Below are positions 1 through 14,299 of a stretch of 64,000 bases of DNA, in pieces (the stretch's first letter is position 1; every line of letters starts with the position of its first letter). Under the pieces are notes generated by a model. That model searched no databases. It was not told the origin of the DNA and saw nothing but the letters and a program-made list of their open reading frames with translations. Source of the stretch: a virus; the IMG/VR virus record IMGVR_UViG_3300034104_004920, positions 1 to 64,000 of that record, one strand, 5' to 3'. A program made the position numbers and the translations under genes.

Positions 1-9
1 TGTTTTTCT

Positions 10-100
10 TGACCCTAAACCGTACCGGGCTTGTGTGGGCTGGGGGTGGTTGGTGTGGGTTTGGTGTGGGTTTGGTACGGTTTGACTCAGCTTAGGGTCA
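10..100. repeat. Interrupted inverted repeat enclosing a G/T-rich, G-tract loop
   Basis: TGACCCTAA (10-18) pairs with TTAGGGTCA (92-100), and AAACCGTACC pairs with GGTACGGTTT. The loop contains five GGG+ tracts and a TGGTGTGGGTT direct repeat. Confidence 0.75.
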
Positions 101-117
101 GTTGTGTAAAACTGATC

Positions 118-155
118 TTGACTCAATGAGGTTTTGCACTGTATAATGTGGGCGC
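118..155 (+). promoter_or_regulatory. Sigma70-type promoter, variant of the repeated module
   Basis: TTGACT(118-123)-N18-TATAAT(142-147)-GTG-GGCGC. Confidence 0.65.
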
Positions 156-180
156 AGAACGGGGGGTGTGATTTTTTAGA

Positions 181-302
181 GATTTTGCACTGGCGCAGGT
201 GGCTTTTGGGGAATAAATTTTTCAAGGTTTTCCACTGGCGCAGGTGACCCACGGGGCGAAAAATTTCAAGGTTTTCCACTGGCGCAGGTGGGTCACCTGC
301 GC
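181..302. repeat. Three ~30-bp direct repeats with core ACTGGCGCAGGTG, period 44-45 bp, last copy closed into a hairpin
   Basis: Core at 189-201, 234-246 and 278-290. GCGCAGGTG-ggt-CACCTGCGC hairpin at 282-302. Confidence 0.9.
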
Positions 303-312
303 TAATTAAGTG

Positions 313-408
313 GATGGTTATATTCGTGAACGCTTATATAAGCGGTGGCTTATATTCGTGGTGGCTTATATAAGCCGACACTTATATAAGCAGTGGCTTA
401 TGTGTGGC
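313..408. repeat. Six tandem 16-bp units, three carrying the palindrome CTTATATAAG
   Basis: gatggttatattcgtg / aacgcttatataagcg / gtggcttatattcgtg / gtggcttatataagcc / gacacttatataagca / gtggcttatgtgtggc, in exact 16-bp phase. Confidence 0.9.
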
Positions 409-418
409 CAAACCTTTC

Positions 419-448
419 ATTGTAGCATGGGCCCGGGAAGGGGGTCAA
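419..448 (-). promoter_or_regulatory. Leftward sigma70-type promoter reading into the non-coding repeat block
   Basis: Minus strand TTGACC-N18-TACAAT with extended -10 TG; no credible ORF downstream within the window. Confidence 0.6.
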
Positions 449-602
449 GTGGTTTTTTAACCACACACGGTTTAGTCGGGATTAGAAAAACCTTGACACG
501 GTCGCCAATATTATGTTATAATATTGGCGCCATAATACCCCTATAACCTGGTCAACAATAGGGGTATTAGGTCAAATAATAAGGGGCTATAAGCCCCTTT
601 TA

Positions 603-767
603 TTATTCCCTGATATGTTCTAGTATATCCATTGCCAATTTTTCCATTTCGTCTGTAATATCCACATCAGACATCGGCTGTAGAGCCAGTTTAATAATAA
701 GTGCCAACCGTATCATTTCTTCGTGGCTGAGTGAAATAATATATTCAGTTTTGGTTTCAATTTGCAT
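603..767 (-). CDS. Small hypothetical protein, 54 aa (MQIETKTEYIISLSHEEM...), below the ORF-track cutoff
   Basis: AAGGAG SD, ATG at 767, TAA at 603-605, ends at hairpin 575-607. Confidence 0.7.
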   Translation of the reverse strand: MQIETKTEYIISLSHEEMIRLALIIKLALQPMSDVDITDEMEKLAMDILEHIRE

Positions 768-796
768 TTTTGATTCTCCTTTTGAAAATGCGGATT

Positions 797-1183
797 TTAG
801 TCCAAATCAGTAACGGGTGAATATAATTCTCCGGTACTGAATCCTAGATCATTTAATATCTTTTCCAAGTGTGCTGCAATTAATTGGAATCGGTCATCGT
901 GATGATAGTTTTCATTAAAGCTGTTATCCTCGATCATTTTGGCATGGATTAATTCGTGTGCAATTACCCCATACACATCAAAATTGGATTCTAGTGTCTG
1001 GCCTAAATTAATAACAATTTTGTGTTTTTGGAGACGATTATTGCGAAACACAGTATCGCACCAACCGGCCAAACGACGTTGAGTCTTATTAAAAACTCGG
1101 GTTTTCAATACTACGTCAACTGGTTTCTGTATTTCCAATACAGAAACCACGGCTTGAATAAGCAACAATACGTCAGATTTCAT
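797..1183 (-). CDS. SprT-like zinc metalloprotease
   Basis: HELIH (HExxH) plus downstream H-x-x-x-F (HDDRF). Confidence 0.7.
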   Translation of the reverse strand: MKSDVLLLIQAVVSVLEIQKPVDVVLKTRVFNKTQRRLAGWCDTVFRNNRLQKHKIVINLGQTLESNFDVYGVIAHELIHAKMIEDNSFNENYHHDDRFQLIAAHLEKILNDLGFSTGELYSPVTDLD

Positions 1184-1219
1184 GGTGTGTTATATGGGGG
1201 TTATTAGCCCCCATATATT

Positions 1220-1918
1220 TTACTTGGCTACGAAATGTTCTTTTACTTGGTGTTTATTCCAGTCATATGGAATTACCTTTTCTCGCCAATCACGTTTTTT
1301 CAAGATATTGACCAAAATAGGAACCTCAAAATCTCGGGCATCTTCCAATGCAGTATGTGGCTCAGTCTTAAACTCGCCACTCACAAAACCACAAACACTT
1401 TCAGCTGTGGTTTTGTAGGTCATGTTTTGGTTGACAGTGGGAGAATTGAATAGGTGATTATCCATGCAAAACTGCCGATAGCGCTTAGTATGGGTAATAT
1501 TACCGATACTAGCGTGCCAAAGGCAGAATTTATCATTGAAAATGTTAAGATCAATTCCGGTTTTGTCGCACTTATCACGATCAAAAGCCAGATTGTATGC
1601 GGTAAGGGTTGGATTATATTTACCAACAGCCTGATTCAGCCATTTATTAATGGCAGCTGTACTGGCAAGCATACGAATACCCGAATTAAGCATGGAGACA
1701 TATGCTGCTTTACGCTTTTCCAAACCCTCATACCCCCAAATATCATTTGCACGTTTATCGTGGAACAATTCATATGTGCCATAATGGTCTTTTACCAATA
1801 CTGCACATTGGTTATAAATCTTGCCATCACGGTCAACAATAACCGCGGCAAAATCAGCCACGGTATTTTCCATCGTGGTTTCAGTATCCACCACGCACCA
1901 GAATTGCTTTTTAGCCAT
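1220..1918 (-). CDS. DEDDh (DnaQ-like) 3'-5' exonuclease
   Basis: ExoI VVDTETT, ExoII AYNLAFD, ExoIII HTALEDA. Start moved to MAKKQF (GAAGGT SD). Confidence 0.85.
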   Translation of the reverse strand: MAKKQFWCVVDTETTMENTVADFAAVIVDRDGKIYNQCAVLVKDHYGTYELFHDKRANDIWGYEGLEKRKAAYVSMLNSGIRMLASTAAINKWLNQAVGKYNPTLTAYNLAFDRDKCDKTGIDLNIFNDKFCLWHASIGNITHTKRYRQFCMDNHLFNSPTVNQNMTYKTTAESVCGFVSGEFKTEPHTALEDARDFEVPILVNILKKRDWREKVIPYDWNKHQVKEHFVAK

Positions 1919-1982
1919 ATTAACCTTCACACATGAAACCGGAAAGGGCCGGAGTCTCGCCCATGCTTTGCAGCACCTGCCG

Positions 1983-2011
1983 AGTGTACCGGTTTTTGTG
2001 ATGTATTGCAA
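1983..2011 (-). promoter_or_regulatory. Leftward promoter of exonuclease cassette
   Basis: TTGCAA-N17-TACACT on minus strand. Confidence 0.6.
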
Positions 2012-2110
2012 GCCCCTACAGTGTGGTCAACTATTGACCAGGCGGCTTGACGGGGGCCAATTATATAATATATAATTGGCGCCAATATAAGGGTTTACCC
2101 TTATATTGAT

Positions 2111-2359
2111 TTATTTCCTTTCCCAGATTTTATATCTTATCATTATGACGACGAAAAACAGATTTAGTATGTAGTTGAATAACAGTGGCATATCTCCTTT
2201 TGGAAATATATAAACAATGGTGAATAACTCCCCAAAGAACCAACAACCCAAGAAAAAGGGGTTTAATCCTCGGGCGTGGCCGTCTTTTGCACATTGCAAA
2301 ACCTGGGGAATTGCACATATTGCAAATAATATGCTACCAATCCAACCTATAGTTTCCAT
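2111..2359 (-). CDS. PQ-loop / SemiSWEET-family 3-TM transporter
   Basis: METIGWIGSILFAICAIPQV..., PQ motif after TM1, three hydrophobic helices, conserved N in TM3 (LLFNY). Confidence 0.8.
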   Translation of the reverse strand: METIGWIGSILFAICAIPQVLQCAKDGHARGLNPFFLGCWFFGELFTIVYIFPKGDMPLLFNYILNLFFVVIMIRYKIWERK

Positions 2360-2360
2360 T

Positions 2361-2825
2361 TTAGTGACCCTGAACCGAGGGAATATAAACACCGCGGATA
2401 TTGAAATGATCGCAAACTGCTTTTAGGTAACTCACATTGTCTTCGTAAAATACACAATCCGCAGTTTTGAATTGCTTCAAGTTGAAAAACTTTTGCAAAC
2501 CCTTGATTTTAAGAGTTTTGCCAGACTGATTATCACCGTCACGACGCGAGATAAGATAATCGGGACTGCCGAGAATCTCACGGATAAACACATTATCCAA
2601 TTCGCGCACAATACGCGCAGTGGCGATAATTACATAAGTATTTGGGTCTTGCAAATCACGACGATATTGAGACACAAGAGGAAGCAAACCATCTTGCATA
2701 CACCGATTTTCATTATCGCGCCAGTATTGCAAATCGATTTTGACAATACCATTTTCTGTTACCGTGCGGTAACGGTGGCTGCTATCAACGATCGTGCCGT
2801 CCATGTCATAAATTGCAACCTTCAT
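2361..2825 (-). CDS. HAD-superfamily phosphatase (PNK-phosphatase/5'-nucleotidase-like)
   Basis: Motif I YDMDGT, motif II ATAR, conserved K, motif IV FYEDN. Confidence 0.85.
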   Translation of the reverse strand: MKVAIYDMDGTIVDSSHRYRTVTENGIVKIDLQYWRDNENRCMQDGLLPLVSQYRRDLQDPNTYVIIATARIVRELDNVFIREILGSPDYLISRRDGDNQSGKTLKIKGLQKFFNLKQFKTADCVFYEDNVSYLKAVCDHFNIRGVYIPSVQGH

Positions 2826-3026
2826 TTTGAACCCCTTGTTTTGTAGAGCCCGAGTGTAGCACGTTCGCCCAGGCGACACAAGCCCCCAACAATGACCCTA
2901 CGTCGTGGTCAACCATTGATGTGGTGGCTTGACACGGCCCAATTTTATATTATAAAATTGGCGCCCCTATTAGGGTTTACCCTAATAGGGGTTTTTAAAT
3001 AATAAGGGGTATAACCCCTTATTATG

Positions 3027-3359
3027 TTAGGCAATGGCTTTTGCAATATCTCGAGCCTTTGCCCCTAGCCGGTTCACAATATTTTCTGACCAGTGGCCGC
3101 CAATATTGCAGGGCAATACCTGCATACTCGCCCAACGGTCCAACACAAGATACTCGGCAACATCGTAGCGATACAGGGATTCTTCCACGCTGGCAAGACT
3201 CAGCGCAAATTTGCCAGTATCAATGCCGGTTTGCTTGATACCAACACAAACCCCCAGCAGGGGAAAATGAAAGATAACCACGTCGGGATAATCCGCCCGC
3301 ATATCTTGCAGAATATCCAATTCCGTATCATTCAAGACGGTTTGATTCACATTACGCAT
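3027..3359 (-). CDS. Hypothetical protein
   Basis: 110-aa ORF, AAAGG SD, ends at hairpin 2999-3025. Confidence 0.7.
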   Translation of the reverse strand: MRNVNQTVLNDTELDILQDMRADYPDVVIFHFPLLGVCVGIKQTGIDTGKFALSLASVEESLYRYDVAEYLVLDRWASMQVLPCNIGGHWSENIVNRLGAKARDIAKAIA

Positions 3360-3447
3360 GATAAGCCCTTTCTATGGCTTGGTTGGGAAAATGGTTTGCT
3401 TAGAGTATGTTATACCCTAAGCAAACCCCTTTCGGGGTTTGCGTCAA

Positions 3448-3780
3448 TCATTCGATTGGACGGGAATTGGCCAGTGCATCGAAGATCGCTTTCAATGCAC
3501 GCTTGTTAGCCTTGGTGAGACTGTCCACGTCAGGCTCCGACAGCATGAGGATTTTGCCGATAGCCTCGGCGTGTGCATCCTTCTTCACGGGAGACTCACC
3601 AGTCTTGGTAACATAGGTCTTCTTCTGGTAAACACCCTCACGACTCAGTTTCGCAACAATCGAGCGAACCGATTTACCGAGACTCTCGGCAAGGGCTTCG
3701 ACCGTAGTGCCGGCCTTGTACGCTTCGACCAGAGCAGCAGTCTGCTCAGGAGTATAATTCACAACCTTTTCACTAGCCAT
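3448..3780 (-). CDS. A2-like pre-early DNA-binding (HTH) protein, paralog 1
   Basis: NYTPEQT...LAESLGKSVRSIVAKLSREGVYQKK...KKDAHAEAIG...SLTKANKRAL resembles T5 A2 by eye; GGAG SD. Confidence 0.65.
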   Translation of the reverse strand: MASEKVVNYTPEQTAALVEAYKAGTTVEALAESLGKSVRSIVAKLSREGVYQKKTYVTKTGESPVKKDAHAEAIGKILMLSEPDVDSLTKANKRALKAIFDALANSRPIE

Positions 3781-3852
3781 TTTCAGTTTCTCCGAGTTAA
3801 CACGCATGGGGAAATTTTGGCAATGCCGGGCAATCCCCTCAACCTATGCTGA

Positions 3853-3955
3853 TATTATACAGGGTCAGTATTCCCCCGTCAAGTATTGTGTTTTCTTTCC
3901 TTTCTGTTCGTCGTCGTCAGGGACACAGTATAACGGTTTTTCAGCCTGGACACAA
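3853..3955 (-). promoter_or_regulatory. Tandem leftward promoters upstream of A2-like gene
   Basis: TTGTGT-N17-TATACT (~3927-3955), whose leader has AAAGGA but no start codon, then TTGACG-N17-TATAAT (~3854-3882). Confidence 0.6.
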
Positions 3956-4078
3956 TACCCTAGTGCAATGTGGGGTCTTTGCGCCAGGCGGTGATTGGCA
4001 GTTAACCAGGCGGTAGCCAGCAGTTAACCAGGGGTAAGTCCCTATTGACAGCTGAGTTAGATTGTGATATAATTTTGG

Positions 4079-4180
4079 CGCACCCCATAGGTGTTACCTA
4101 TGGGGTGCGGCGGCTCAATAGGTAACACCTATTGAGCCGCACACAAAAAAGCCGACAAAAACAGTCGGCTTTTTTGTGTG
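4079..4180 (+). ncRNA. Candidate ~95-nt small RNA: two hairpins plus intrinsic terminator
   Basis: Promoter TTGACA(4045)-N17-TATAAT(4068). Stems at 4079-4109 and 4110-4140, then GCCGAC/GTCGGC stem followed by T6. No ORF. Confidence 0.5.
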
Positions 4181-4263
4181 GCCCTTGACAGGGCCCAAAA
4201 TTATATGTTATAATTTTGGCGCAAATTAGCCGCCTGGCCAGGCGGCTAATTATACTGTGATTA

Positions 4264-4425
4264 TTATTCGTCGGTGTTGACGACAATGGTGGAAACGTGG
4301 GGGTCGGAATTGGGGACGTCGTCCAGCATCTTGACCCTATACGCCACCCAGTTGATGCTGGTGTAGTATTCCTGATGATGCTTGAAGTGTTGTTCGTCCC
4401 ACCATTCGATCATGTAAACCTTCAT
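4264..4425 (-). CDS. Small hypothetical protein, 53 aa (MKVYMIEWWDEQHFKHHQEYY...)
   Basis: Own leftward promoter and AAAGGA SD; double TAA stop; not in ORF track. Confidence 0.75.
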   Translation of the reverse strand: MKVYMIEWWDEQHFKHHQEYYTSINWVAYRVKMLDDVPNSDPHVSTIVVNTDE

Positions 4426-4597
4426 TTGGGTTCCTTTCGTGTTGCAGAGAACACAGTATAACGCTTTTTAAGCCGCACAGCACATACCCGAGCGCATCGT
4501 GGGGTCTTTTAGCCAGGCCCTTGACAGGGCCCAAAATTATATGTTATAATTTTGGCGCCATAATAACCCTATAATATATAGGGTTATTATGTGGTCG

Positions 4598-4759
4598 TTA
4601 GAAAAACCCCATGTTGATTATTTTGTAGTCCAGTTTGGGGCACTTTTTGCCTAAATTCTTTTTCAATTCTACACAATCCCTTTCTAAATCCGATAGGTTT
4701 TGATAGTGACACACCAAAACATTATCGAAAAACAAACCCCAGACTTTTACAACACCCAT
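4598..4759 (-). CDS. Small hypothetical protein, 53 aa (MGVVKVWGLFFDNVLVCHY...)
   Basis: Overlaps stop of upstream gene and ends at module hairpin. Confidence 0.55.
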   Translation of the reverse strand: MGVVKVWGLFFDNVLVCHYQNLSDLERDCVELKKNLGKKCPKLDYKIINMGFF

Positions 4760-4959
4760 TTTGAAATCCCCACCAGGTTAGCGCACAAGAAAAACCCGTT
4801 CAATACACTGAGGGATTTATCCCTTTTCGTGATCCCTATATATAGCCACGATATCGAACCAATAATAAACAAACTGTATCCCAAAATATATATCTGAAAC
4901 GCAACCAGAAAACTGCCGATAACCGAGCTTATAGTGCCTAGCCACGATATATACCCCAT
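4747..4959 (-). CDS. Small 3-TM membrane protein (PnuC/YgjV-like half-transporter fold suspected)
   Basis: 70 aa, almost entirely hydrophobic, pattern W-G....G..L....GY..F..G...W. Confidence 0.65.
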   Translation of the reverse strand: MGYISWLGTISSVIGSFLVAFQIYILGYSLFIIGSISWLYIGITKRDKSLSVLNGFFLCANLVGISKWVL

Positions 4960-4960
4960 T

Positions 4961-5326
4961 TCAAATCCGTTTGTAGTTTACCATGTTATGGCATCGTTCT
5001 GGAGGCAGACCTAATTCTTTCATAATCTTTTTCCAGCTTTTGCCATGCCCAAAATCATTATACACCAGAAAAGCCACACAGTGTGCCAATTCATGGGGAA
5101 TAATGACGTTACAAAATTCGTCGGGATATTGTTCGAACAATTCAACCGACAAGTCTATATACTGCGGGTCGTGCTCAATAAAAGCACGTCCTGCGGTAGT
5201 TTTCAGCCGTTTATTCAAAACTACCGCAGGAGCAGTTTTGGTTAAGTTGGGGTACAGATTGCACAGTATGTCCCAAGTGTTTTGGGCACTGCGGTCTGCG
5301 ACTTGTTGCATTGTGGAGTCTTTCAT
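4961..5326 (-). CDS. SprT-family zinc metalloprotease
   Basis: LNKRLKTTAGRA, PHELAH, HGKSWKKIM...LG...RCH are typical SprT motifs. Confidence 0.85.
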   Translation of the reverse strand: MKDSTMQQVADRSAQNTWDILCNLYPNLTKTAPAVVLNKRLKTTAGRAFIEHDPQYIDLSVELFEQYPDEFCNVIIPHELAHCVAFLVYNDFGHGKSWKKIMKELGLPPERCHNMVNYKRI

Positions 5327-5467
5327 GGGCCGGATTCTACTACAAAAATTTGGCTACCACAAGACCCCTCGACCAGGTCAACTATTGCTAGTGTCACTTG
5401 ACACGGTCGCCAATATTATATTATAATATTGGCGCCAGTATTAGGGTTTACCCTAATACTGGCCTTA

Positions 5468-5659
5468 TTAAATAGGTTCGACTTTGTAGACAGTATGTTG
5501 AACAAGCCTTACAGGAATACCATCATATATTTGAAGGTATTGCATATCGATTGGTCTGTCATCAGACCACGATTCCAATTGCTCCACAATTTCTTCGACG
5601 GTTGAACCCGTAGCGATATACTCGGCGATATCGCTGGCAGTATAGATTCCAAACAGCAT
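5468..5659 (-). CDS. Small acidic hypothetical protein
   Basis: AAAGGAAACATCATG SD/start; weakly similar to neighbour 5684-5878. Confidence 0.7.
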   Translation of the reverse strand: MLFGIYTASDIAEYIATGSTVEEIVEQLESWSDDRPIDMQYLQIYDGIPVRLVQHTVYKVEPI

Positions 5660-5683
5660 GATGTTTCCTTTCTTGAAATGTGG

Positions 5684-5878
5684 TTAGTCCGGCAAGACAT
5701 CCCATTTAGCAACCATAGTCATGGAAACCTTGACTTCTTCAGCCCTAAATACCTTTAGGTATATTGGGTCTATTTCTTCCCCTGCTTGACGAGTCAAGTC
5801 TGCGATTATTGGCTCAAGACTGCTGGCACACGCCCACAAGTCTTCACCGTGATCGGTGTAATACACTGCAATAAGCAT
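5684..5878 (-). CDS. Small acidic hypothetical protein
   Basis: Same leader TTCAAGAAAGGAAACATCATGCT as 5468-5659. Confidence 0.7.
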   Translation of the reverse strand: MLIAVYYTDHGEDLWACASSLEPIIADLTRQAGEEIDPIYLKVFRAEEVKVSMTMVAKWDVLPD

Positions 5879-5920
5879 GATGTTTCCTTTCTTGAAAAGG
5901 GGGATACTATCCCCCGGATA

Positions 5921-6241
5921 TCACACGATCAACGAGAGCTTTTGCAGAATCTTTTGCAATGCGGTTTTGTTCGCCTTGGTGAGACTGCTAGTCTCGGGCT
6001 CTGTCAATTCACAAAGAACCCCGATTTTGTCTGCCAGCTCTTCTTTTGAAACAACTGTTTCACCAGTCTTGGTAACATACTCCTTTTTCTTGTAAACACC
6101 TTCCCGGCTCAGTTTGGCCACCACACTGCGAACACTCTTGCCCAGCGTGGCTGCAATACTTTCCACGGGAACACCCTTGCTATACCCGTCCAGCATTTGT
6201 TGGACCTGCTCGGGAGTGTAGTTTGCGGTTTTCTCAGTCAT
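5921..6241 (-). CDS. A2-like pre-early DNA-binding protein, paralog 2
   Basis: Clearly homologous to 3448-3780 (NYTPEQ, LGKSVRSxVAKLSREGVY, YVTKTGE, SLTKANK). Confidence 0.65.
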   Translation of the reverse strand: MTEKTANYTPEQVQQMLDGYSKGVPVESIAATLGKSVRSVVAKLSREGVYKKKEYVTKTGETVVSKEELADKIGVLCELTEPETSSLTKANKTALQKILQKLSLIV

Positions 6242-6256
6242 CTTCTTTCCTTTCAG

Positions 6257-6352
6257 TCAAAGACCATCGCCGACAATAATAGCAATTCCCATTGCAAGAA
6301 TCGCCACCCAGAATGGGCTAGTAGCCCACAAAATCAGAAAAAGATCCGACAT
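6257..6352 (-). CDS. 31-aa single-pass membrane peptide (MSDLFLILWATSPFWVAILAMGIAIIVGDGL)
   Basis: GAGGGG SD; fills the gap between two genes. Confidence 0.55.
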   Translation of the reverse strand: MSDLFLILWATSPFWVAILAMGIAIIVGDGL

Positions 6353-6353
6353 T

Positions 6354-6551
6354 TTAACCCCTCTTTGAATAAACAACCAGACCCGTGAGATACTCGCGCT
6401 TGCCTGCCATGTAGCTGCGACGCACCACATAGGACTTCAAGCCCAGCATGTTAGCAGACCTAATGGCTTCAGTCAACAGGCTAGTGCCCGTGGTGACTGG
6501 TTTGTAGGCAACTTCACTGTGAAAAACAGTGTAAACAGGTTCGTAACCCAT
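6354..6551 (-). CDS. Hypothetical protein (MGYEPVYTVF...)
   Basis: GGAG SD before ATG 6551; leftward promoter ~6589-6618. Confidence 0.65.
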   Translation of the reverse strand: MGYEPVYTVFHSEVAYKPVTTGTSLLTEAIRSANMLGLKSYVVRRSYMAGKREYLTGLVVYSKRG

Positions 6552-6820
6552 CGAAGGTCTCCGGTTGTTCGTCGTTTCCATGGGATAGAGTATAACGGTT
6601 TTTCGGCCCATCCACAATACCCTAGTGCATCGTGTGGTCTTTGAACCAGGCCTAGGGGTAAGTCCCTATTGACAGCAAGAATTTGGTGTGGTATAATTTT
6701 GGCGCCACAAAAACCCTACGATCTGTAGGGTTTTTGCAGCCAGGCCGTTGACACGGCCCAAAATTATGTGTTATAATTTTGGCGCCACAAAGCCCCCACA
6801 TTCTGTGGGGGCTTTGGTTA

Positions 6821-6979
6821 TCACTCCCACATAGTTTTACGGGTCGCGATAGAGGCGATTGTAGCAAGAGGAAATTTCTTCCTGAAGTCTTCGATGGCCA
6901 GATCGCGGGTCTCAGCACGAATAGCCACCGAGTAGCTGCCGAAACCTTCAACTGCGTTAAAGTAGAACCAGGTCTTCAT
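6821..6979 (-). CDS. Small hypothetical protein (MKTWFYFNAVEG...)
   Basis: Conserved cassette leader AAAGGAACACGAGATG. Confidence 0.75.
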   Translation of the reverse strand: MKTWFYFNAVEGFGSYSVAIRAETRDLAIEDFRKKFPLATIASIATRKTMWE

Positions 6980-7156
6980 CTCGTGTTCCTTTCTGCTGCT
7001 GTGAACACAGTATAGCACAACACCGCAACACCTAACTTTTAACCCCTCAGTGTGGTCAACTATCCGGGCACGCGCTTGACACGGCCCAAAATTATGTGTT
7101 ATAATTTTGGCGCCACAAAGCCCCCACATTCTGTGGGGGCTTTGATTGATTGGTGA

Positions 7157-7348
7157 TTACTTTGACTTCAAGTCATTCGTGTGCCATTCCACGCTACGCG
7201 CCACGCTCTCGTTTTCGCGCACAGCACTGGCCAGCATACCCGTCAGGTAACCGACAACAAAGGACTCGGAATAGCCCTTGCTAGCAGCGCGCTCGCGGGC
7301 GGCCTGGAGCAGGGCTTGGACTTGGTTGTAGGCTTCGGTAGCAGTCAT
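7157..7348 (-). CDS. Small hypothetical protein (MTATEAYNQV...)
   Basis: Conserved cassette leader AAAGGAACACGAGATG. Confidence 0.75.
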   Translation of the reverse strand: MTATEAYNQVQALLQAARERAASKGYSESFVVGYLTGMLASAVRENESVARSVEWHTNDLKSK

Positions 7349-7514
7349 CTCGTGTTCCTTTCCTGTTGCAGTGAACGCAGTATAGCACAAGACCGTGCCC
7401 GTGCAAGACCTAAATTTTAACCCCTCAGTGTGGTCAACTATCCAGGCCACCGCTTGACACGGGCCAATTATATAATATATAATTGGCGCCCGAATAGGGG
7501 TTTACCCCTATTCG

Positions 7515-7646
7515 TTATTCTTCATATACTATGAAGTATGGAGTTTCCCCATAATCTCCAGAGTATTCAATGGGATGGTCCGGATTGAACAGAGTCATAT
7601 CAATCCCAGTATCCCAGAAAACATCAAAAACCCAGTCCTGATACAT
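7515..7646 (-). CDS. 43-aa acidic/aromatic peptide (MYQDWVFDVFWDTGID...)
   Basis: AAAGGAAG SD; shares YQDWV with 8619-8753. Confidence 0.65.
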   Translation of the reverse strand: MYQDWVFDVFWDTGIDMTLFNPDHPIEYSGDYGETPYFIVYEE

Positions 7647-7656
7647 ATACTTCCTT

Positions 7657-7881
7657 TCAATAGTCTAGCCAATCGCCCATACTCTCGATTTTGGAGGCTG
7701 CTTCCTCCACACTAACCACATACTGAACCCGATCAACCCAGTTGGGGCTATCCGGGCCAATATACATAACACAACACCAGCGGCCCGTAGCACCACGCGC
7801 AAGACAGTGGATACCCTGTATGGGCCGGGGATACTTCGTACCCGTCATGTCGCATTCGGTGATCATGCCAAAAATCATCAT
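7657..7881 (-). CDS. Hypothetical protein
   Basis: CAGGAG SD; in cassette operon. Confidence 0.65.
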   Translation of the reverse strand: MMIFGMITECDMTGTKYPRPIQGIHCLARGATGRWCCVMYIGPDSPNWVDRVQYVVSVEEAASKIESMGDWLDY

Positions 7882-7901
7882 GGTATATACTCCTGATTTG
7901 A

Positions 7902-8096
7902 TTACGCCATTACTCGGTCGATATAAGCCTGGGCCTGTTCCACAGTCTTAAAAGACTTGACCTGCTTGGTGACCCAGTAGGCGTCCTGCCGGATGGTGTC
8001 AAACTTGAACACCTGCACCTGGACAGTGCGAGTAGCCCACGGTACAACAAACGCCCTGACAGTACCAAGGGCCGGGGGAGTGTAGGTGGTGGTCAT
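7902..8096 (-). CDS. Hypothetical protein (MTTTYTPP...)
   Basis: Cassette leader GAGGAACACGAGATG. Confidence 0.75.
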   Translation of the reverse strand: MTTTYTPPALGTVRAFVVPWATRTVQVQVFKFDTIRQDAYWVTKQVKSFKTVEQAQAYIDRVMA

Positions 8097-8289
8097 CTCG
8101 TGTTCCTCTTGTGTTGCTGTGAACACAGTATAGCACAACACCACACCAGCACAACATCAAAATTTTAACCCCTCGACCAGGTCAACTATTGTGCGGGGGG
8201 CTTGACCAGGCCACCAAAATTATGATATAATTTTGGCGCCCGAATAAGGGTTGTCCCTTATTCGGTTTTGTCTTACTGAGAGTAGGATA

Positions 8290-8451
8290 TCAACCTATCG
8301 AGTAAGTGCCTCCGCGTGGCACGCCGATGTCATCTAGTAGGACGTCAATTACCGTTTGGGAAACCACAGCCCTACCATTGACAAACACGGCATCGACCAA
8401 GTAAGAATACCTGCGGCCGTTGAAACGGATGGAAACAAAAACCTTTTTCAT
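8290..8451 (-). CDS. Hypothetical protein (MKKVFVSIRF...)
   Basis: Cassette leader CAGGAGAACATGAAATG. Confidence 0.7.
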   Translation of the reverse strand: MKKVFVSIRFNGRRYSYLVDAVFVNGRAVVSQTVIDVLLDDIGVPRGGTYSIG

Positions 8452-8618
8452 TTCATGTTCTCCTGCTGCTGTGAACACAGTATAACACAAGACCGTGCCT
8501 GGACAACAATAAATTTTTGACCCTACAACCTACTCGGCTATTGTGGCCAAGCGGCTTGACCAGGCCACCAAAATTATGATATAATTTTGGCGCCCCAATA
8601 GGGGTAAACCCCTATTAA

Positions 8619-8753
8619 TTAGTCCGACCAACACCCCAATAATGGGGGATACTCTGTTTCTGGATATTCCCAGTTTACAGGATTATCCATTGCAATCTCC
8701 GTCAAATCCCAGTCATACAAATAGGGCAAAACCCAGTCTTGATAGTCGCTCAT
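8619..8753 (-). CDS. 44-aa acidic/aromatic peptide (MSDYQDWVLPYLYDWD...)
   Basis: Paralog-like to 7515-7646; ends at module hairpin. Confidence 0.6.
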   Translation of the reverse strand: MSDYQDWVLPYLYDWDLTEIAMDNPVNWEYPETEYPPLLGCWSD

Positions 8754-8764
8754 TTGTCGAACCC

Positions 8765-8899
8765 TTATTCTGTTAGTTCTCTGTATACCTGATCATAACT
8801 AACACAGTATTCCCATGCCGCATTTCTGCAAGCATCAAAGAAACTCATGTGATATACAGACATCAATTGCTTTGCGTAACACACGGCAGCTTCAAGCAT
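8765..8899 (-). CDS. 44-aa hypothetical protein (MLEAAVCYAKQLM...)
   Basis: Overlaps stop of upstream gene; fills the operon gap. Confidence 0.55.
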   Translation of the reverse strand: MLEAAVCYAKQLMSVYHMSFFDACRNAAWEYCVSYDQVYRELTE

Positions 8900-9092
8900 T
8901 TTGTTGCTTTCTGGCATAAACACACAGTTTGTAATAATGGTTTACCATATCCATCAACTGCTGGGCATTTTCTCTTTGTTTAGGATCCTTCAATTCATTT
9001 TCAATTTGTTCGATAAACGCTTTGAAGGTAACGAACAGAAAACCATCGCTCATGGTTTCGGAAATGTATTGCAGTTTTTCTGTAGTATTCAT
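8892..9092 (-). CDS. Hypothetical protein
   Basis: 66-aa ORF in operon. Confidence 0.65.
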   Translation of the reverse strand: MNTTEKLQYISETMSDGFLFVTFKAFIEQIENELKDPKQRENAQQLMDMVNHYYKLCVYARKQQNA

Positions 9093-9103
9093 TTCTTACC
9101 CTT

Positions 9104-9307
9104 TCAAACCCGGAACGTGGGGCTCACGCCGACCTTGTCAGCCACCATCCACACGTACTCCACGTACACTTCTTCTTCGCGGGCTTCCTGAGCCGCCACG
9201 TCCAGATCCCAGTTGGCCTGGTCGTATTCTTCACGAATGGTGATTTCGGCCATGTCCAGCTCAAAGGACTCGATGTCTTCACGGGTCATGTCAGCGGGGT
9301 AGTACAT
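9104..9307 (-). CDS. Highly acidic small protein
   Basis: D/E-rich 67 aa; AAGGAG SD; promoter TTGACA-N18-TATACT at ~9339-9368. Confidence 0.75.
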   Translation of the reverse strand: MYYPADMTREDIESFELDMAEITIREEYDQANWDLDVAAQEAREEEVYVEYVWMVADKVGVSPTFRV

Positions 9308-9474
9308 CTTGGGGCTCCTTGTCTGTGTCAGTAGAGTTAGTATAACGCAAAACAGCGTGTTGTGTCAAACCCGATCTTTGTGTGGGGTCTTTGGCCAGGC
9401 CCTTGACCTGGCCCAGAATTACATGATATAATTCTGGCGCCATAAAGCCCTTACAGTCTGTAAGGGCTTTGGTA

Positions 9475-9681
9475 TCAATGCCATTCCGGCTTGATCCTGG
9501 GCTTCTTCATACGCCAGAACATACGCCACTTGCATCCCTGGGGCGTAAGGGCTTGGGTATTTTCGTAGACCACGAACCTGTTACCTCTCAGCTTTCCAAC
9601 CGGCTTGCCCGGGAGCTGGCCACGCAATAGCCTTTCGGCAGTCTTTTCATAGGTCTTGACAAGCATCGCAGTCTTCCTCAC
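9475..9681 (-). CDS. Basic hypothetical protein
   Basis: GTGA overlap with upstream stop; K/R-rich. Confidence 0.6.
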   Translation of the reverse strand: MRKTAMLVKTYEKTAERLLRGQLPGKPVGKLRGNRFVVYENTQALTPQGCKWRMFWRMKKPRIKPEWH

Positions 9682-9926
9682 TTCTTCTTCAAGAAAGTCT
9701 TTTCGTAATTGTCGATCATTGCAGTCTGTCGCTGATTCTGGTCCCTCAGCTTCTTAAGCTCAATTTGACTGAAGCCATACCGGGCTTCCATGTAGTTGAT
9801 GTAGTCGAGGGATTCTTCCAGCAGCTTCCAGAGCTTATCAGCATCGTGAGCCGCAAGCAGGGCTTTTCGAATCGTCTTGAGCCTAAAATCCTGGTCGCTG
9901 GACAGTTGGGGTTGATCGTTAGGCAT
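9678..9926 (-). CDS. Hypothetical coiled-coil protein (MPNDQPQL...)
   Basis: GGGAG SD, cassette leader and promoter upstream. Confidence 0.7.
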   Translation of the reverse strand: MPNDQPQLSSDQDFRLKTIRKALLAAHDADKLWKLLEESLDYINYMEARYGFSQIELKKLRDQNQRQTAMIDNYEKTFLKKK

Positions 9927-10094
9927 CTTTGCTCCCTTGTGTGTTGCAGTGAAGACAGTATAACCCAAAACACCACAGTCAGTCAAACCCGAGTGTTTTG
10001 TGGTGGAATTGTGTAGGGCCTTGACGGGGGCCAGAATATTGTGATATAATTCTGGCGCCATAAAGCCCTTACAGTCTGTAAGGGCTTTGGTCAA

Positions 10095-10337
10095 TCACAC
10101 CAACCGATACCGACCCGCATCATACTCGCGAAGCACAGCCCGACCTATGTTGGCGTTAGTGTCCATATCGAGCCCCCACAACACAACCACGCCGGAAATG
10201 TGGCGTGAGGCATCGTGAAAGAAAACCTCTACATCGTCCAGGTTTAGCTCTACCGCATCCTGTTCTTCAAACACAATGTCCAAGAATTGTTGATTGTTGT
10301 AGACCCGGCCGGTGTTGTAAACAATGTGCCTTCTCAT
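10095..10337 (-). CDS. Hypothetical protein (MRRHIVYNTGR...)
   Basis: AAAGGAACACTAAGATG leader. Confidence 0.7.
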   Translation of the reverse strand: MRRHIVYNTGRVYNNQQFLDIVFEEQDAVELNLDDVEVFFHDASRHISGVVVLWGLDMDTNANIGRAVLREYDAGRYRLV

Positions 10338-10359
10338 CTTAGTGTTCCTTTGTGGGTTA

Positions 10360-10515
10360 TTAGAAGCTGCCGGAAAGTATGGGGATGTTACGGGCCGGAC
10401 CGATAAGGACAACATCCTCCAGAGGAGCGGTGTCGTCCAGGTACGGATGCTGAATGCGAACTTCCTCAGACGGGTCAAGGGTTTGCAGAATCTGGATCAG
10501 GTCTTGTACGGTCAT
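10360..10515 (-). CDS. Hypothetical protein (MTVQDLIQIL...)
   Basis: Common small phage protein N-terminus MTVxELIxxL; cassette leader and promoter. Confidence 0.7.
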   Translation of the reverse strand: MTVQDLIQILQTLDPSEEVRIQHPYLDDTAPLEDVVLIGPARNIPILSGSF

Positions 10516-10610
10516 TTTGGTGTTCCTCTCGTGTTGCAGTGATGACAGTATAACGCAAAACACCACAGTCAGTCAAACCCGATCTTTGTGTGGGGTCTTT
10601 GTGTGGCCCC

Positions 10611-10640
10611 TTGACGTGGCCTAAAAACACATGGTACAAT
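10611..10640 (+). promoter_or_regulatory. Rightward promoter, last module variant
   Basis: TTGACG-N18-TACAAT with TG extension. Confidence 0.55.
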
Positions 10641-10782
10641 AGGGGCGGTTAACAGACTAGTTACTTTACTGAGTGTGCTGCGCCCCCCAACACGGCCTCT
10701 TTTAAAAAATATCACACAAAGTTTTCGGTGCCAAAACCCAACAAATCTTCTTTTAAAATAATACCCAAGTCAAAAATAGTGG

Positions 10783-10811
10783 TTGAATTTTTTTAACACA
10801 TGTTTTATAAT
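10783..10811 (+). promoter_or_regulatory. Promoter for terminase genes
   Basis: TTGAAT-N17-TATAAT, 30 nt upstream of ATG. Confidence 0.6.
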
Positions 10812-10840
10812 TCAGTTTTACACTACCCACAACACCAACC

Positions 10841-11326
10841 ATGAACACACTGCCCGTTCCACACTCACCTGCAGAGGTAGTGCAATTGACGCCCGAAGAC
10901 GTATTGATCTGCAATACGTACTTGACAACAGGAAGCATTGACATCACGAGCTCCCAGTTGGACATTCCACAAGAACTGGTGGTCAAAACCTTGGAATCTC
11001 CGCTCTCAAAAAGCTATGTAGATCGTGTGTTTTTAGACTGGGGGTTTAACAATCGCTTTAAAATCCGCAAAGCAATGGATTTGGTGTTAGAAAAAAAGTT
11101 TCAAGAATTGGATGAGAGTGGGACTGGGTCTTCAAAAGATATCGCAGAATTGTTGGAGTTGTCACACAAAATGACAATGAACGAACTGGACCGCCAGATT
11201 GCATTAGAAAAGATACGATCAAAAAACGCTCCCACCATCAAAAAACAAACAAACATTCAAGTAAACGACAACTCTGTGACGTCTAACTACCACAACTTAC
11301 TATCAACACTATTAAAAAATGCTTGA
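10841..11326 (+). CDS. terS: Terminase small subunit (T5-like)
   Basis: Immediately upstream of and overlapping terL; N-terminal HTH; SSKDIAELL and QTNIQVN resemble T5-like TerS. Confidence 0.8.
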   Translation: MNTLPVPHSPAEVVQLTPEDVLICNTYLTTGSIDITSSQLDIPQELVVKTLESPLSKSYVDRVFLDWGFNNRFKIRKAMDLVLEKKFQELDESGTGSSKDIAELLELSHKMTMNELDRQIALEKIRSKNAPTIKKQTNIQVNDNSVTSNYHNLLSTLLKNA

Positions 11327-12650: not shown

Positions 12651-13145
12651 ATGGGAACAAACACAAACAAGCGAATTCCTGTAAAATGGATTCGTGACAA
12701 AGCAAAAAGTGCATACCAAAAACAGGACCACTGTTTTGTGTGTGGTGTGGAGTTGGACCTAGAACTACACCATTTAGGGTCAGTTACCCTATTATTGGAG
12801 CGCTGGTGCAAGGGTAGGGGGTTAGTCTTAAAAACGGATGACGACGTTTTAAACATTCGTGATGAGTTTATTGAAAATCACCAAACAGAATTGTACAAAG
12901 ACGTTTACACTCTTTGTAATCATCACCATGTTTTATTACACTCCGTTTTTGGAAAAGCACCGCCTCTGTCAAGCGTAGCCAAACAGCGTAACTGGATTGA
13001 GATTCAAAAGAACAAAAAAACCGATAAAATTGTTTTAAACAGTAACATCCTTACTTTTAGCAGTTTTTACGGAAATTTTGAGTCCTTTAAACCATTGTAC
13101 GAGAAAACAAATGAAAATAAGCACCGTATTCAAGAACTGGATTGA
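12651..13145 (+). CDS. HNH-type nicking endonuclease (T5 terL-portal interval gene)
   Basis: CxxC...LELHH...TLCxxHH...LHxxFGK; same position as the T5 nicking endonuclease. Confidence 0.85.
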   Translation: MGTNTNKRIPVKWIRDKAKSAYQKQDHCFVCGVELDLELHHLGSVTLLLERWCKGRGLVLKTDDDVLNIRDEFIENHQTELYKDVYTLCNHHHVLLHSVFGKAPPLSSVAKQRNWIEIQKNKKTDKIVLNSNILTFSSFYGNFESFKPLYEKTNENKHRIQELD

Positions 13146-14289
13146 AAAACTCAATCCAGCTCAAGTCGTTATATCACGAGAAGAAGGTAGTTTAGTTGAC
13201 ACAACCAGTATTATCACTTACAAACAAGCGTTTGATAGGCTGGAAAGTGTTAATAGAGGCGTAAACATGATTGTTAGCGCCTGCAGCGGACTAGACTACG
13301 ACATAAAAGATAAAAAATTAGATGGTGTGTTTCAAGGAATGCGCCAGAAAACACTAAACACAATATTAAATTATCAGCCAAATCCTTATCAAAGTGTTCA
13401 AGAGTTCCGACGCAACATATTCACAGACTTTTTATTAGACGGAAATGTGTTTTTGTACTGGGACGGAGCGTCATTGTACCACTTGCCAGCTGAAAATGTA
13501 ACAATAGAAACAAGTGCAAAAACATTTGTTAGTCGTTACAACTACAACTCAGAAATATTCTTTAAACCAGAAGAAGTATTGCACTTTAAAGACTTGAGTT
13601 CAAAGAGCATTTATCGTGGTGATAGCCGGTTGCAGAGCTGTGACCGCAACATAAAAACTCTTTACAAAATGCAAAATTTTCAGGACGGGTTCTTTGAAAA
13701 TGGAGCTGTAATGGGAATGGTGTTGACCTCAGAAAACACACTGTCCCAGATTGCAAAAGACAGAACAATTCAAAACTGGACTTCAAAGTACAACCCTAAA
13801 CTGGGTCCGCGGAAGCCAGTTATATTGGACAGCGGGTTGAAGCCTGTTAAGCTGGGTGACGAAAGCTTTAAAGATTTAGATTTTGACAATTCTATCAAAA
13901 CTCACGACAGCAAGATTTTAAAAGCACTTGGAGTTCCGCCTATCTTGTTGGAGGGTGGAAACAACGCAAACATTAGTCCTAACTTGAGATTGTTTTACCT
14001 AGAAACAGTAATTCCTATCTTAAATAACTACGTTTCAAGTTTAGAAAGATTCTTCGGATACGATATTGCTCCAGTGACAAGCAACGTATCCGCGATGCAG
14101 CCTGAGTTGAAAGACTTGGCTGCCTACTACACAACACTAGTAAACGGAGGGATTTTGAGTCCAAACGAAGCTAGAGTTGAACTTCGCTATCAATCAAAGC
14201 CAGACTCGGATAATTTAAGAATTCCAGCAAATATTGCTGGAAGTGCAAGCAATCCAAGTACGGGCGGACGACCAAGCGAATCAAATTAA
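13111..14289 (+). CDS. Portal protein (HK97/T5 pb7-like)
   Basis: PNPYQS, LLDGN, ALGVPPILL, GILSPNEAR motifs; probable start MKISTVF at 13111. Confidence 0.95.
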   Translation: MKISTVFKNWIEKLNPAQVVISREEGSLVDTTSIITYKQAFDRLESVNRGVNMIVSACSGLDYDIKDKKLDGVFQGMRQKTLNTILNYQPNPYQSVQEFRRNIFTDFLLDGNVFLYWDGASLYHLPAENVTIETSAKTFVSRYNYNSEIFFKPEEVLHFKDLSSKSIYRGDSRLQSCDRNIKTLYKMQNFQDGFFENGAVMGMVLTSENTLSQIAKDRTIQNWTSKYNPKLGPRKPVILDSGLKPVKLGDESFKDLDFDNSIKTHDSKILKALGVPPILLEGGNNANISPNLRLFYLETVIPILNNYVSSLERFFGYDIAPVTSNVSAMQPELKDLAAYYTTLVNGGILSPNEARVELRYQSKPDSDNLRIPANIAGSASNPSTGGRPSESN

Positions 14290-14299
14290 AAGGAAGCAC

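Follow-up and report, generated by a model that had tools for sequence, protein, structure and literature searches.

The first 64,000 nucleotides of the 97,277-bp IMG/VR record IMGVR_UViG_3300034104_004920 (CheckV completeness 92%; this whole stretch is hereafter called the window) open with an array of fifteen modules, in each of which a near-consensus sigma70 promoter on the plus strand, a GGCGC motif and a strong hairpin follow one another, antisense to the small genes between which they are located. GGCGC coincides with the consensus of the single-strand interruptions (nicks) of phage T5, and the fusion of the three parts is retained, in the same orientation, in uncultured relatives that share almost no alignable DNA with one another. 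The parts are of known kinds (sigma70 promoter, T5 nick consensus, stem-loop, and joints resembling the promoter-stem-loop (PeSL) cassettes of T4-type phages); their fusion into an orientation-locked antisense module was found neither in the literature, nor in cultured phages, nor in Rfam. The modules look like an undescribed way of marking cassette boundaries, and it is tentatively proposed, with somewhat less confidence than doubt, that, in a clade of uncultured T5-like phages, each of them acts in cis as a composite boundary element in the terminal, pre-early-like region.

What the site-specific nicks of T5-like phages are for is a question that has stood since the 1960s-70s. The present array, like those of more than 90 uncultured relatives, joins the nick consensus to the best promoters of the region and to a palindrome, and does so at set positions with respect to the genes, which offers a testable link between nicks, host RNA polymerase and the organization of pre-early genes. 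The module also represents a compact natural promoter/stop unit, and by its signature (TTGACA-N18-TATAAT-N1-3-GGCGC) members of this clade, and their terminal region, can be recognised in metagenomic data.

Anatomy and conservation of the module

A preliminary description of this DNA had reported fifteen plus-strand promoters, each followed by GGCGC(C) and a hairpin. A consensus scan recovered all the fifteen -35 boxes on that strand, with nine promoters scoring 12/12 and six scoring 11/12. The promoter spacers are 17-18 bp long, many of them with a TGn; in each module GGCGC(C) lies 1-3 nt past the -10 box and is directly followed by a strong palindrome, i.e., a perfect or near-perfect hairpin (Table 1). 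The composite pattern TTGAC-N18/19-TATAAT-N1-3-GGCGC has 15 matches in the window, all on the plus strand and all below position 10,058, versus 0.00 in 100 shuffles; the module at 2929 escapes it because its -10 box is TAAAAT, and an extra copy, beyond the fifteen, is present at 118. Over the whole genome the pattern is confined to these modules plus the duplicated end, and the 13 GGCGCC hexamers of the 97-kb genome are all embedded in modules, with none in the remaining 86 kb. The repeat unit is not the promoter alone, since it embraces the entire intergenic stretch (120-175 bp, 75-100% identity), and modules 9 and 10 (6748-6816 and 7076-7144) share 100% identity.

The same description had the best promoters of the region facing no gene, which holds for the fifteen modules and fails for a further promoter at 10611, the sole gene-facing one among the rightward promoters of the region, which points at the genes for the small (terS) and large (terL) terminase subunits. 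This promoter lacks GGCGC and a strong hairpin, and the same is true of the rightward promoter nearest terS in several lineages, including the relatives G003 (IMGVR_UViG_3300034073_004910) and G004; the GGCGC/hairpin pair therefore specifically marks dead-end promoters.

The genome under study (G000) was compared with five further near-complete genomes of the family, six in all. G001 is a close relative of G000 (terL identity 94%), and an alignment of G002 with G005 covers 38%, at 80% identity; G000, G002, G003 and G004 are mutually almost without alignable DNA, and lineages separated to this extent still retain the module. All six genomes share one map, in which injection-stop-like repeats are followed by leftward D5-like, PQ-loop and dmp genes with antisense modules and then by terS-terL-HNH-portal; in 6/6 genomes the modules lie on the strand of the latter genes and run antisense to the dmp and D5-like ones. 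Scanning IMG/VR with the composite pattern disclosed at least 118 stretches, and 126 loci were analysed, at least 91 of which hold two or more modules. The following counts refer to the matches listed. No locus carries modules on both strands, and the open reading frames (ORFs) just downstream of modules are antisense in 220 cases, sense in 2 and ambiguous in 184. Cultured phages yielded no module either by megablast of positions 1-11,000 or by a sensitive search with a 42-nt module, and no Rfam family reached its gathering score, the best being RNAI (31.9 bits versus 47) at 4072-4177, with no match for the other modules. The 4072-4177 unit comprises three stem-loops.

The position of the hairpin is fixed, its sequence being free to vary within and between lineages. 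In 289 of the 366 unique modules the stem starts no more than 3 nt after the first G of GGCGC, and the mean minimum free energy is -22.8 kcal/mol, versus -12.3 for shuffles. Since the hairpin sequences differ between lineages, RNAs acting through their sequence are unlikely, and this reduces, without removing, the appeal of the battery of hairpin RNAs that had been considered. A strict stem-plus-T-tract rule called terminators on the plus strand in 107/366 modules, on the minus strand in 77/366 and on both in 33. As for the window, about 8 hairpins are canonical terminators on the plus strand and 3 on the minus strand, so that the double role attributed to them earlier (stopping both the plus-strand transcript and the convergent gene) applies to about half of the modules as regards the former and to only about three as regards the latter; the hairpins at 7491, 8240 and 2963 have a T-tract on the plus strand only. 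Modules 4045 and 6669 keep their hairpins without any convergent gene, and the hairpin must therefore belong to the module and not to the gene.

A second symmetry is embedded in the promoter. In about 70% of the modules, spacer and -10/discriminator region are reverse complements of each other (e.g., CCAAAATTATA...TATAATTTTGG). In a register-free test, with modules grouped by the six bases preceding GGCGC, the spacer matched its own right arm perfectly over 8.5 nt on average (9.2-9.6 in the main classes), versus 5.1 nt for the arms of other classes, and palindromy is therefore maintained via correlated change; column-wise covariation gives a weak signal because the symmetry centre shifts between modules. 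Covariation of this kind fits base pairing (a cruciform, or the fold-back of nicked ends) or template-switch correction better than a fixed protein half-site. The palindrome is missing in the window modules 4045 and 6669 and in the G003 lineage, and is therefore not essential. A leftward promoter hidden in it was also considered and rejected, there being no usable -35 box or TG on that strand.

The differences between G000 and G001 consist of whole genes or cassettes, whose edges fall at the module hairpin and at the repeat formed by the leftward promoter and 5' untranslated region; for instance, 6820-6976 is replaced, 9473-9931 is absent and 8251-8616 is extra. In T4-type phages, PeSLs bound gene swaps in the same manner (PMC2839356, PMC4122927). 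The idea, already advanced, that the modules and intergenic repeats may serve as recombination joints is supported by these breakpoints, and cassette shuffling of the PeSL type would extend beyond T4-like phages.

GGCGC and the single-strand interruptions of T5

The preliminary description missed the identity of GGCGC with the T5 nick consensus, the T5.153-type HNH gene, the strand-specific avoidance of the motif and its presence beside DnaA-box-like repeats. According to the T5 GenBank record (AY543070), the major single-chain interruptions are located at 5'-NPu↓GCGCN-3' (the arrow marking the interruption) on the minus strand. The GGCGC of all the modules corresponds to this consensus, Pu↓GCGC, and is located on the strand that encodes terL; T5 is likewise nicked on its terL-encoding strand, and the motif occupies the terL strand in all six genomes. 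The window also encodes an HNH-type homologue of T5.153 (Table 1), which is 39% identical (E 4e-39) to a gene of Vibrio phage 234P1 annotated as a nicking endonuclease and located in the same terL-adjacent place; T5-related phages are routinely annotated with a nicking endonuclease for this gene (PMC10194208). The protein, a nickase by annotation, is the candidate enzyme for reading GGCGC.

All the annotated major nicks of T5 obey a bipartite signature, YGTAAY-N28-32-R↓GCGC, with 6 matches on the nicked strand and 0 on the other; five of them are annotated nicks, including the right-repeat copy, and the sixth, unannotated, is at about 101,713. In the injection-stop region of T5 the major nick reads TTTGCACAAAA↓GCGCAGGG, followed by a palindrome beginning at GCGC. 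The window contains promoter-less sites at 192, 237 and 281 that read TTTTSCACTG↓GCGCAGGTG (TTTTSCACTG↓GCGCAGG), the third of which is followed by the palindrome GCGCAGGTG-GGT-CACCTGCGC, and promoter-less GGCGCAGG sites accompany DnaA-like boxes in every lineage. The surroundings of the three window sites are similar in sequence to those of this T5 nick.

Beyond the module region, this genome has 6 copies of GGCGC on the module strand versus 23 on the complement, and four relatives have 11/29, 17/42, 6/30 and 15/43; a pooled count over five genomes (four to five independent lineages) gives 45 versus 133 (z 6.6), with the module strand depleted. GGCGC is the most asymmetric of the 512 pentamer pairs in the five genomes, and the bias is observed in blocks of either gene orientation. 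The apparently opposite count of G003 (116 versus 32) is due to about 96 GGC-GCT repeats in collagen-like fibre genes at 85-94 kb; such repeats represent a trap for motif statistics. Since the motif is avoided genome-wide on one strand, it behaves as a strand-read signal and not as a promoter discriminator, and the data would point to GGCGC as a DNA-level signal rather than a purely transcriptional one. Two other origins of the bias were considered. Avoidance of type III restriction was rejected, since it would leave a single site orientation and both occur; as for a Chi-like protection of the entering end, the orientation fits, but the depletion elsewhere and the promoter do not.

Proposed function of the module and competing explanations

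In the proposed boundary element, the host sigma70 promoter would load host RNA polymerase at each cassette boundary; GGCGC, at or just before the predicted start site and on the terL strand, would act as a T5-type nick signal (G↓GCGC), with the T5.153-like HNH enzyme as the nick maker; and the perfect palindrome abutting the motif would confine the transcript. The non-template strand would probably be interrupted inside the transcription bubble, and the only products would be dead-end hairpin transcripts of about 30-100 nt whose sequence is irrelevant, so that the effect would come from polymerase sitting at the 3' end of the leftward cassette or from the interrupted strand there. Occupancy and/or interruption might then shield neighbouring cassettes from read-through, and the intergenic unit of about 150 bp might double as a homologous-recombination joint for cassette exchange. 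The nicks themselves, the firing of the promoters and the effect of their combination are all predicted from the DNA sequence.

Several facts weigh against this proposal. T5 shows no strand bias for PuGCGC (68 versus 76), so that the depletion argument has no positive control; its major nicks are without a promoter, and at about 30 nt upstream of the cut motif the modules carry TTGACA and not YGTAAY. Neither T5 nor Vibrio phage 234P1, both of which were examined, has the module. A GC-rich GCGC discriminator after TATAAT is typical of stringent rRNA/tRNA promoters, so that within the modules GGCGC could be purely a promoter feature, and Escherichia coli RNA polymerase is able to bypass template nicks, which makes insulation based on nicks uncertain. 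The proposal also leaves the palindrome between the spacer and the -10/discriminator region unexplained, and the reason for fusing a nick signal to a consensus promoter is not established. A rather improbable variant would make host RNA polymerase the specificity factor for nicking: the open complex would expose the non-template GGCGC to the HNH nickase, giving one virion nick per boundary and dividing the template strand of the leftward genes into one piece for each transcription unit, with the palindromes folding the nick ends.

The modules might instead be purely transcriptional, which is unlikely although deserving serious consideration. They would be rrn-like promoters with a GCGC discriminator sensing supercoiling and guanosine tetraphosphate (ppGpp), GGCGC would have no role in nicking, and the leftward pre-early genes would be tuned or silenced by antisense hairpin RNAs or by polymerases met head-on, through interference or through pairing with the 3' hairpin of the mRNA and cleavage by RNase III. 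The consensus promoters, their fixed register with GGCGC 1-3 nt past the -10 box, and the exact complementarity between each predicted transcript and the 3' hairpin of the convergent mRNA all suit this explanation, as do the plus-strand T-tracts of about half of the window hairpins, several of them on that strand only, as if stopping these transcripts, and the hairpins kept by modules 4045 and 6669 in the absence of a convergent gene. It leaves unexplained the genome-wide, strand-specific avoidance of GGCGC outside promoters, the promoter-less GGCGCAGG sites, the match with the T5 nick and the palindromic spacer; furthermore, only 29% of the family modules (among the matches listed) have a canonical plus-strand terminator, so that antisense transcripts started at the strongest promoters would run on unchecked, at a cost. 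A late switch similar to lambda PR'-tR' is quite improbable. In this case the promoters would be constitutively active, with transcription stopping at their own hairpins, until a phage factor, possibly D5-like, bound the palindromic spacer and rendered polymerase terminator-resistant, and the fifteen promoters would sweep antisense over the pre-early genes and then into the terS-terL-structural operon. In 6/6 genomes the array does immediately precede terS/terL, sharing their strand and pointing towards them; the spacer between the -35 and -10 boxes is conserved, as would suit a Q-binding element; the array itself encodes two D5-like regulator paralogues, and D5 of T5 is required for the early-to-late switch. 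Nevertheless, consensus-like promoters free of any block serve the structural operon (at 10611, at 10783 and others inside), no gene for a Q-like or other antiterminator was recognised in the region, the arm-to-arm covariation suits base pairing more than a fixed protein half-site, and the strand bias of GGCGC is not accounted for.

Similarly small chances are given to the possibility that the modules are nothing but recombination joints or selfish repeats, i.e., PeSL-like mobile cassettes in which the rightward promoter is a functionless passenger. The repetition of intergenic units of 120-175 bp at 75-100% identity is in line with it, as are the mosaic breakpoints of close relatives at these units, T4-like PeSLs acting in this way (PMC2839356, PMC4122927). 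A passenger would be expected to decay, but the rightward promoter is nearer to the consensus than the gene-driving ones, promoter and GGCGC are conserved across lineages without alignable DNA, and gene-less modules are kept. The least credited explanation, which is very improbable, is that of a sink or decoy for RNA polymerase, or of a priming or origin element in which R-loops prime synthesis or recombination in a terminal repeat. The strength of the promoters and their number (15 per repeat, twice as many if the repeat is terminal, and multiplied again by replication) are compatible with it, and R-loops are favoured when the non-template strand is nicked. The decoys already entertained in the preliminary description are quantitatively weak, because a single infecting genome would offer about 15-30 sites to thousands of polymerases, and T5 origins map mid-genome (10.1101/866236), which disagrees with priming. 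Transcription-driven DNA entry of the T7 style was rejected, the modules pointing, by T5 synteny, to the already-entered end.

The pre-early-like region and comparison with known systems

On the evidence of its genes, the virus is an uncultured siphovirus related to T5. Its large terminase shares 48% identity with Vibrio Demerecviridae and also matches hundreds of Salmonella/Escherichia T5-like phages, and the gene order on the plus strand is terS-terL-HNH-portal-protease/capsid-tape measure. A single 665-amino-acid ORF (14234-16231), whose N-terminal part is similar to a prohead protease and whose C-terminal part to a major head protein, may represent a fusion of protease and capsid genes. 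The two ends of the contig share 197 bp (window 1-197, genome 97081-97277) at 99.5% identity, and the record is therefore a circular or collapsed-repeat assembly. Exact end overlaps of 126-127 bp in the relatives G004 and G005, named 'direct terminal repeats' in IMG/VR, were rejected as true ends, being assembly k-mer overlap artefacts uninformative on ends.

About 30 small minus-strand genes with Shine-Dalgarno sites occupy 0.5-10.6 kb and, as previously noted, have leftward promoters of their own; the -10 boxes of these lie 25-45 nt upstream of start codons, and leftward and rightward promoters are arranged back-to-back with about 35-50 bp between their -35 boxes. Given a dmp homologue, D5/A2-like genes and injection-stop-like DnaA-box repeats, the pre-early (first-step-transfer) label that the region had received is a reasonable inference by synteny; the direction of DNA entry and the status of the region as a terminal repeat are presumed likewise. 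The stretch 118-480 is untranslated and repeat-rich, with four DnaA-box-like TTTTGCACT/TTTTCCACT units; in T5-like phages, DnaA boxes have been described from the injection-stop region (10.1101/866236). Next to these repeats, at 310-400, a 10-12-bp palindrome, (G)CTTATATAAG(C), is present in five copies plus half-copies, and 'gcttatataagc' motifs in relatives (L009, G005) resemble it.

Other features of the region can be listed briefly. At 4031-4260 and 6655-6820, a gene-less, non-palindromic module with a 17-bp spacer, preceded by GGGGTAAGTCCCTA, stands back-to-back with a palindromic one, and each such pair is located upstream of a D5/A2-like regulator cassette. An (A/C)TAGTTGACC box on the minus strand (2020-2040, 2900-2915, 5370-5385, 7050-7065, 7425-7440 and 8175-8190) is conserved in one class of intergenic unit, where it lies between the two divergent promoters; since its spacing is wrong for a -35 box, it may be a regulator site. 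Two tandem small genes at 5468-5878 (63 and 64 amino acids) have an identical ribosome-binding region, and one of them is missing from G001.

Table 1. Position, strand and main characteristics of the features described in the text (window coordinates).
Feature	Position	Strand	Characteristics
Variant module	118-155	+	TTGACT-18-TATAAT-GTG-GGCGCAG
Injection-stop-like repeats	118-300	+	variant module and three DnaA-box-like TTTTGCACT/TTTTCCACT + GGCGCAGG units; GGCGC at 192, 237, 281
Module 1	493-600	+	TTGACA-18-TATAAT (493-522); GGCGCC 526; hairpin 529-572; bidirectional terminator 575-600
Module 2	2047-2108	+	promoter; GGCGCC 2078; hairpin 2083-2108; T-rich tail
Module 3	2929-3024	+	TAAAAT promoter; GGCGCC 2960; hairpin 2963-2992 with five-T tail; second, bidirectional hairpin 2999-3024
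Module 4, gene-less	4045-4177	+	non-palindromic promoter, 17-bp spacer; GGCGCA 4077; hairpins 4079-4109/4110-4140, then terminator
Module 5	4185-4259	+	palindromic promoter; GGCGCA 4218; hairpin 4220-4259
Module 6	4521-4596	+	palindromic promoter; GGCGCC 4554; hairpin ~4559-4591
Module 7	5398-5463	+	palindromic promoter; GGCGCC 5431; hairpin 5434-5463
Module 8, gene-less	6669-6741	+	promoter with 17-bp spacer; GGCGCC 6701; bidirectional terminator-like hairpin ~6708-6736
Module 9	6748-6816	+	palindromic promoter; GGCGCC 6781; hairpin ~6788-6815
Module 10	7076-7155	+	GGCGCC 7109; hairpin
Module 11	7454-7514	+	GGCGCC 7485; hairpin 7491-7514; T-tract on + only
Module 12	8202-8265	+	GGCGCC 8235; hairpin 8240-8265; terminator for + only
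Module 13	8556-8624	+	GGCGCC 8589; hairpin ~8597-8616
Module 14	9403-9471	+	GGCGCC 9436; hairpin ~9444-9470
Module 15	10021-10089	+	GGCGCC 10054; hairpin ~10062-10088
Sixteenth rightward promoter	10611-10640	+	TTGACG-18-TACAAT; no GGCGC, no strong hairpin; faces terS (10841) and terL
Leftward genes	603-10515	-	cassettes of 1-3 genes; own TATACT-type promoters, often TGn-extended
SprT-like proteins (two)	797-1183, 4961-5326	-	by homology
PQ-loop protein	2111-2359	-	by homology
dmp homologue	2361-2825	-	T5 pre-early gene dmp; 36% identity, E 6e-14
D5/A2-like DNA-binding paralogues (two)	3448-3780, 5921-6241	-	D5-like; likeness to A2 marginal
HNH-type protein, T5.153 homologue	12651-13145	+	between terL and portal; 43% identity, E 1.8e-29

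Among known systems, the PeSLs of T4-type phages (PMC2839356; PMC4122927) share with the array short terminator/promoter repeats between small early genes in a plastic region; here, too, the units delimit the indels and gene swaps that distinguish close relatives, and on the gene strand the unit reads as a hairpin followed by an early promoter. The array had been regarded as distinct from PeSLs, and the orientation of the promoter bears this out: the PeSL promoter drives the next gene, whereas here a separate leftward promoter does so, and an extra, stronger consensus promoter is directed the other way, into the hairpin, with no gene ahead of it. Moreover, the modules carry GGCGC and a palindromic spacer, on one DNA strand, tied to terminase polarity.

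With the interruptions of T5/BF23 the modules have in common the G↓GCGC core, its restriction to the terL-coding strand and the HNH gene adjoining terL, and the promoter-less sites share a DnaA-box-like context and a palindrome starting at GCGC. T5 has 4 sites plus a repeat copy genome-wide, whereas here there are 15-19 candidate sites in 10 kb; T5 has YGTAAY about 30 nt upstream, no promoter, and no strand avoidance of PuGCGC. The arrangement also recalls lambda PR'-tR' (6S RNA) and oop RNA, in which a strong constitutive promoter runs into a nearby terminator, the transcript being antisense, as oop is to cII, to the 3' end of the gene converging on it; the differences are the fifteen copies per genome, the unconserved RNA sequence, the lack of a known antiterminator, and a hairpin located 0-6 nt after the start-site motif, mostly without a U-tract.

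Stringent rRNA/tRNA-type promoters have near-consensus hexamers and GCGCC just past TATAAT as well, rrnB P1 reading TATAAT-GCGCCACC; here, in contrast, 1-3 T precede GGCGC, the spacer is 18 bp long and forms a palindrome together with the -10 region, and both use and avoidance of the motif extend beyond promoters. Finally, the N4 virion RNA polymerase hairpin, Frpo and the M13 minus-origin promoters also place a promoter within an inverted repeat, the arms of which co-vary in the present case. Those promoters need the hairpin, whereas here the duplex is already a perfect sigma70 promoter, whose -35 box lies outside the palindrome and whose -10 box would be buried by extrusion.

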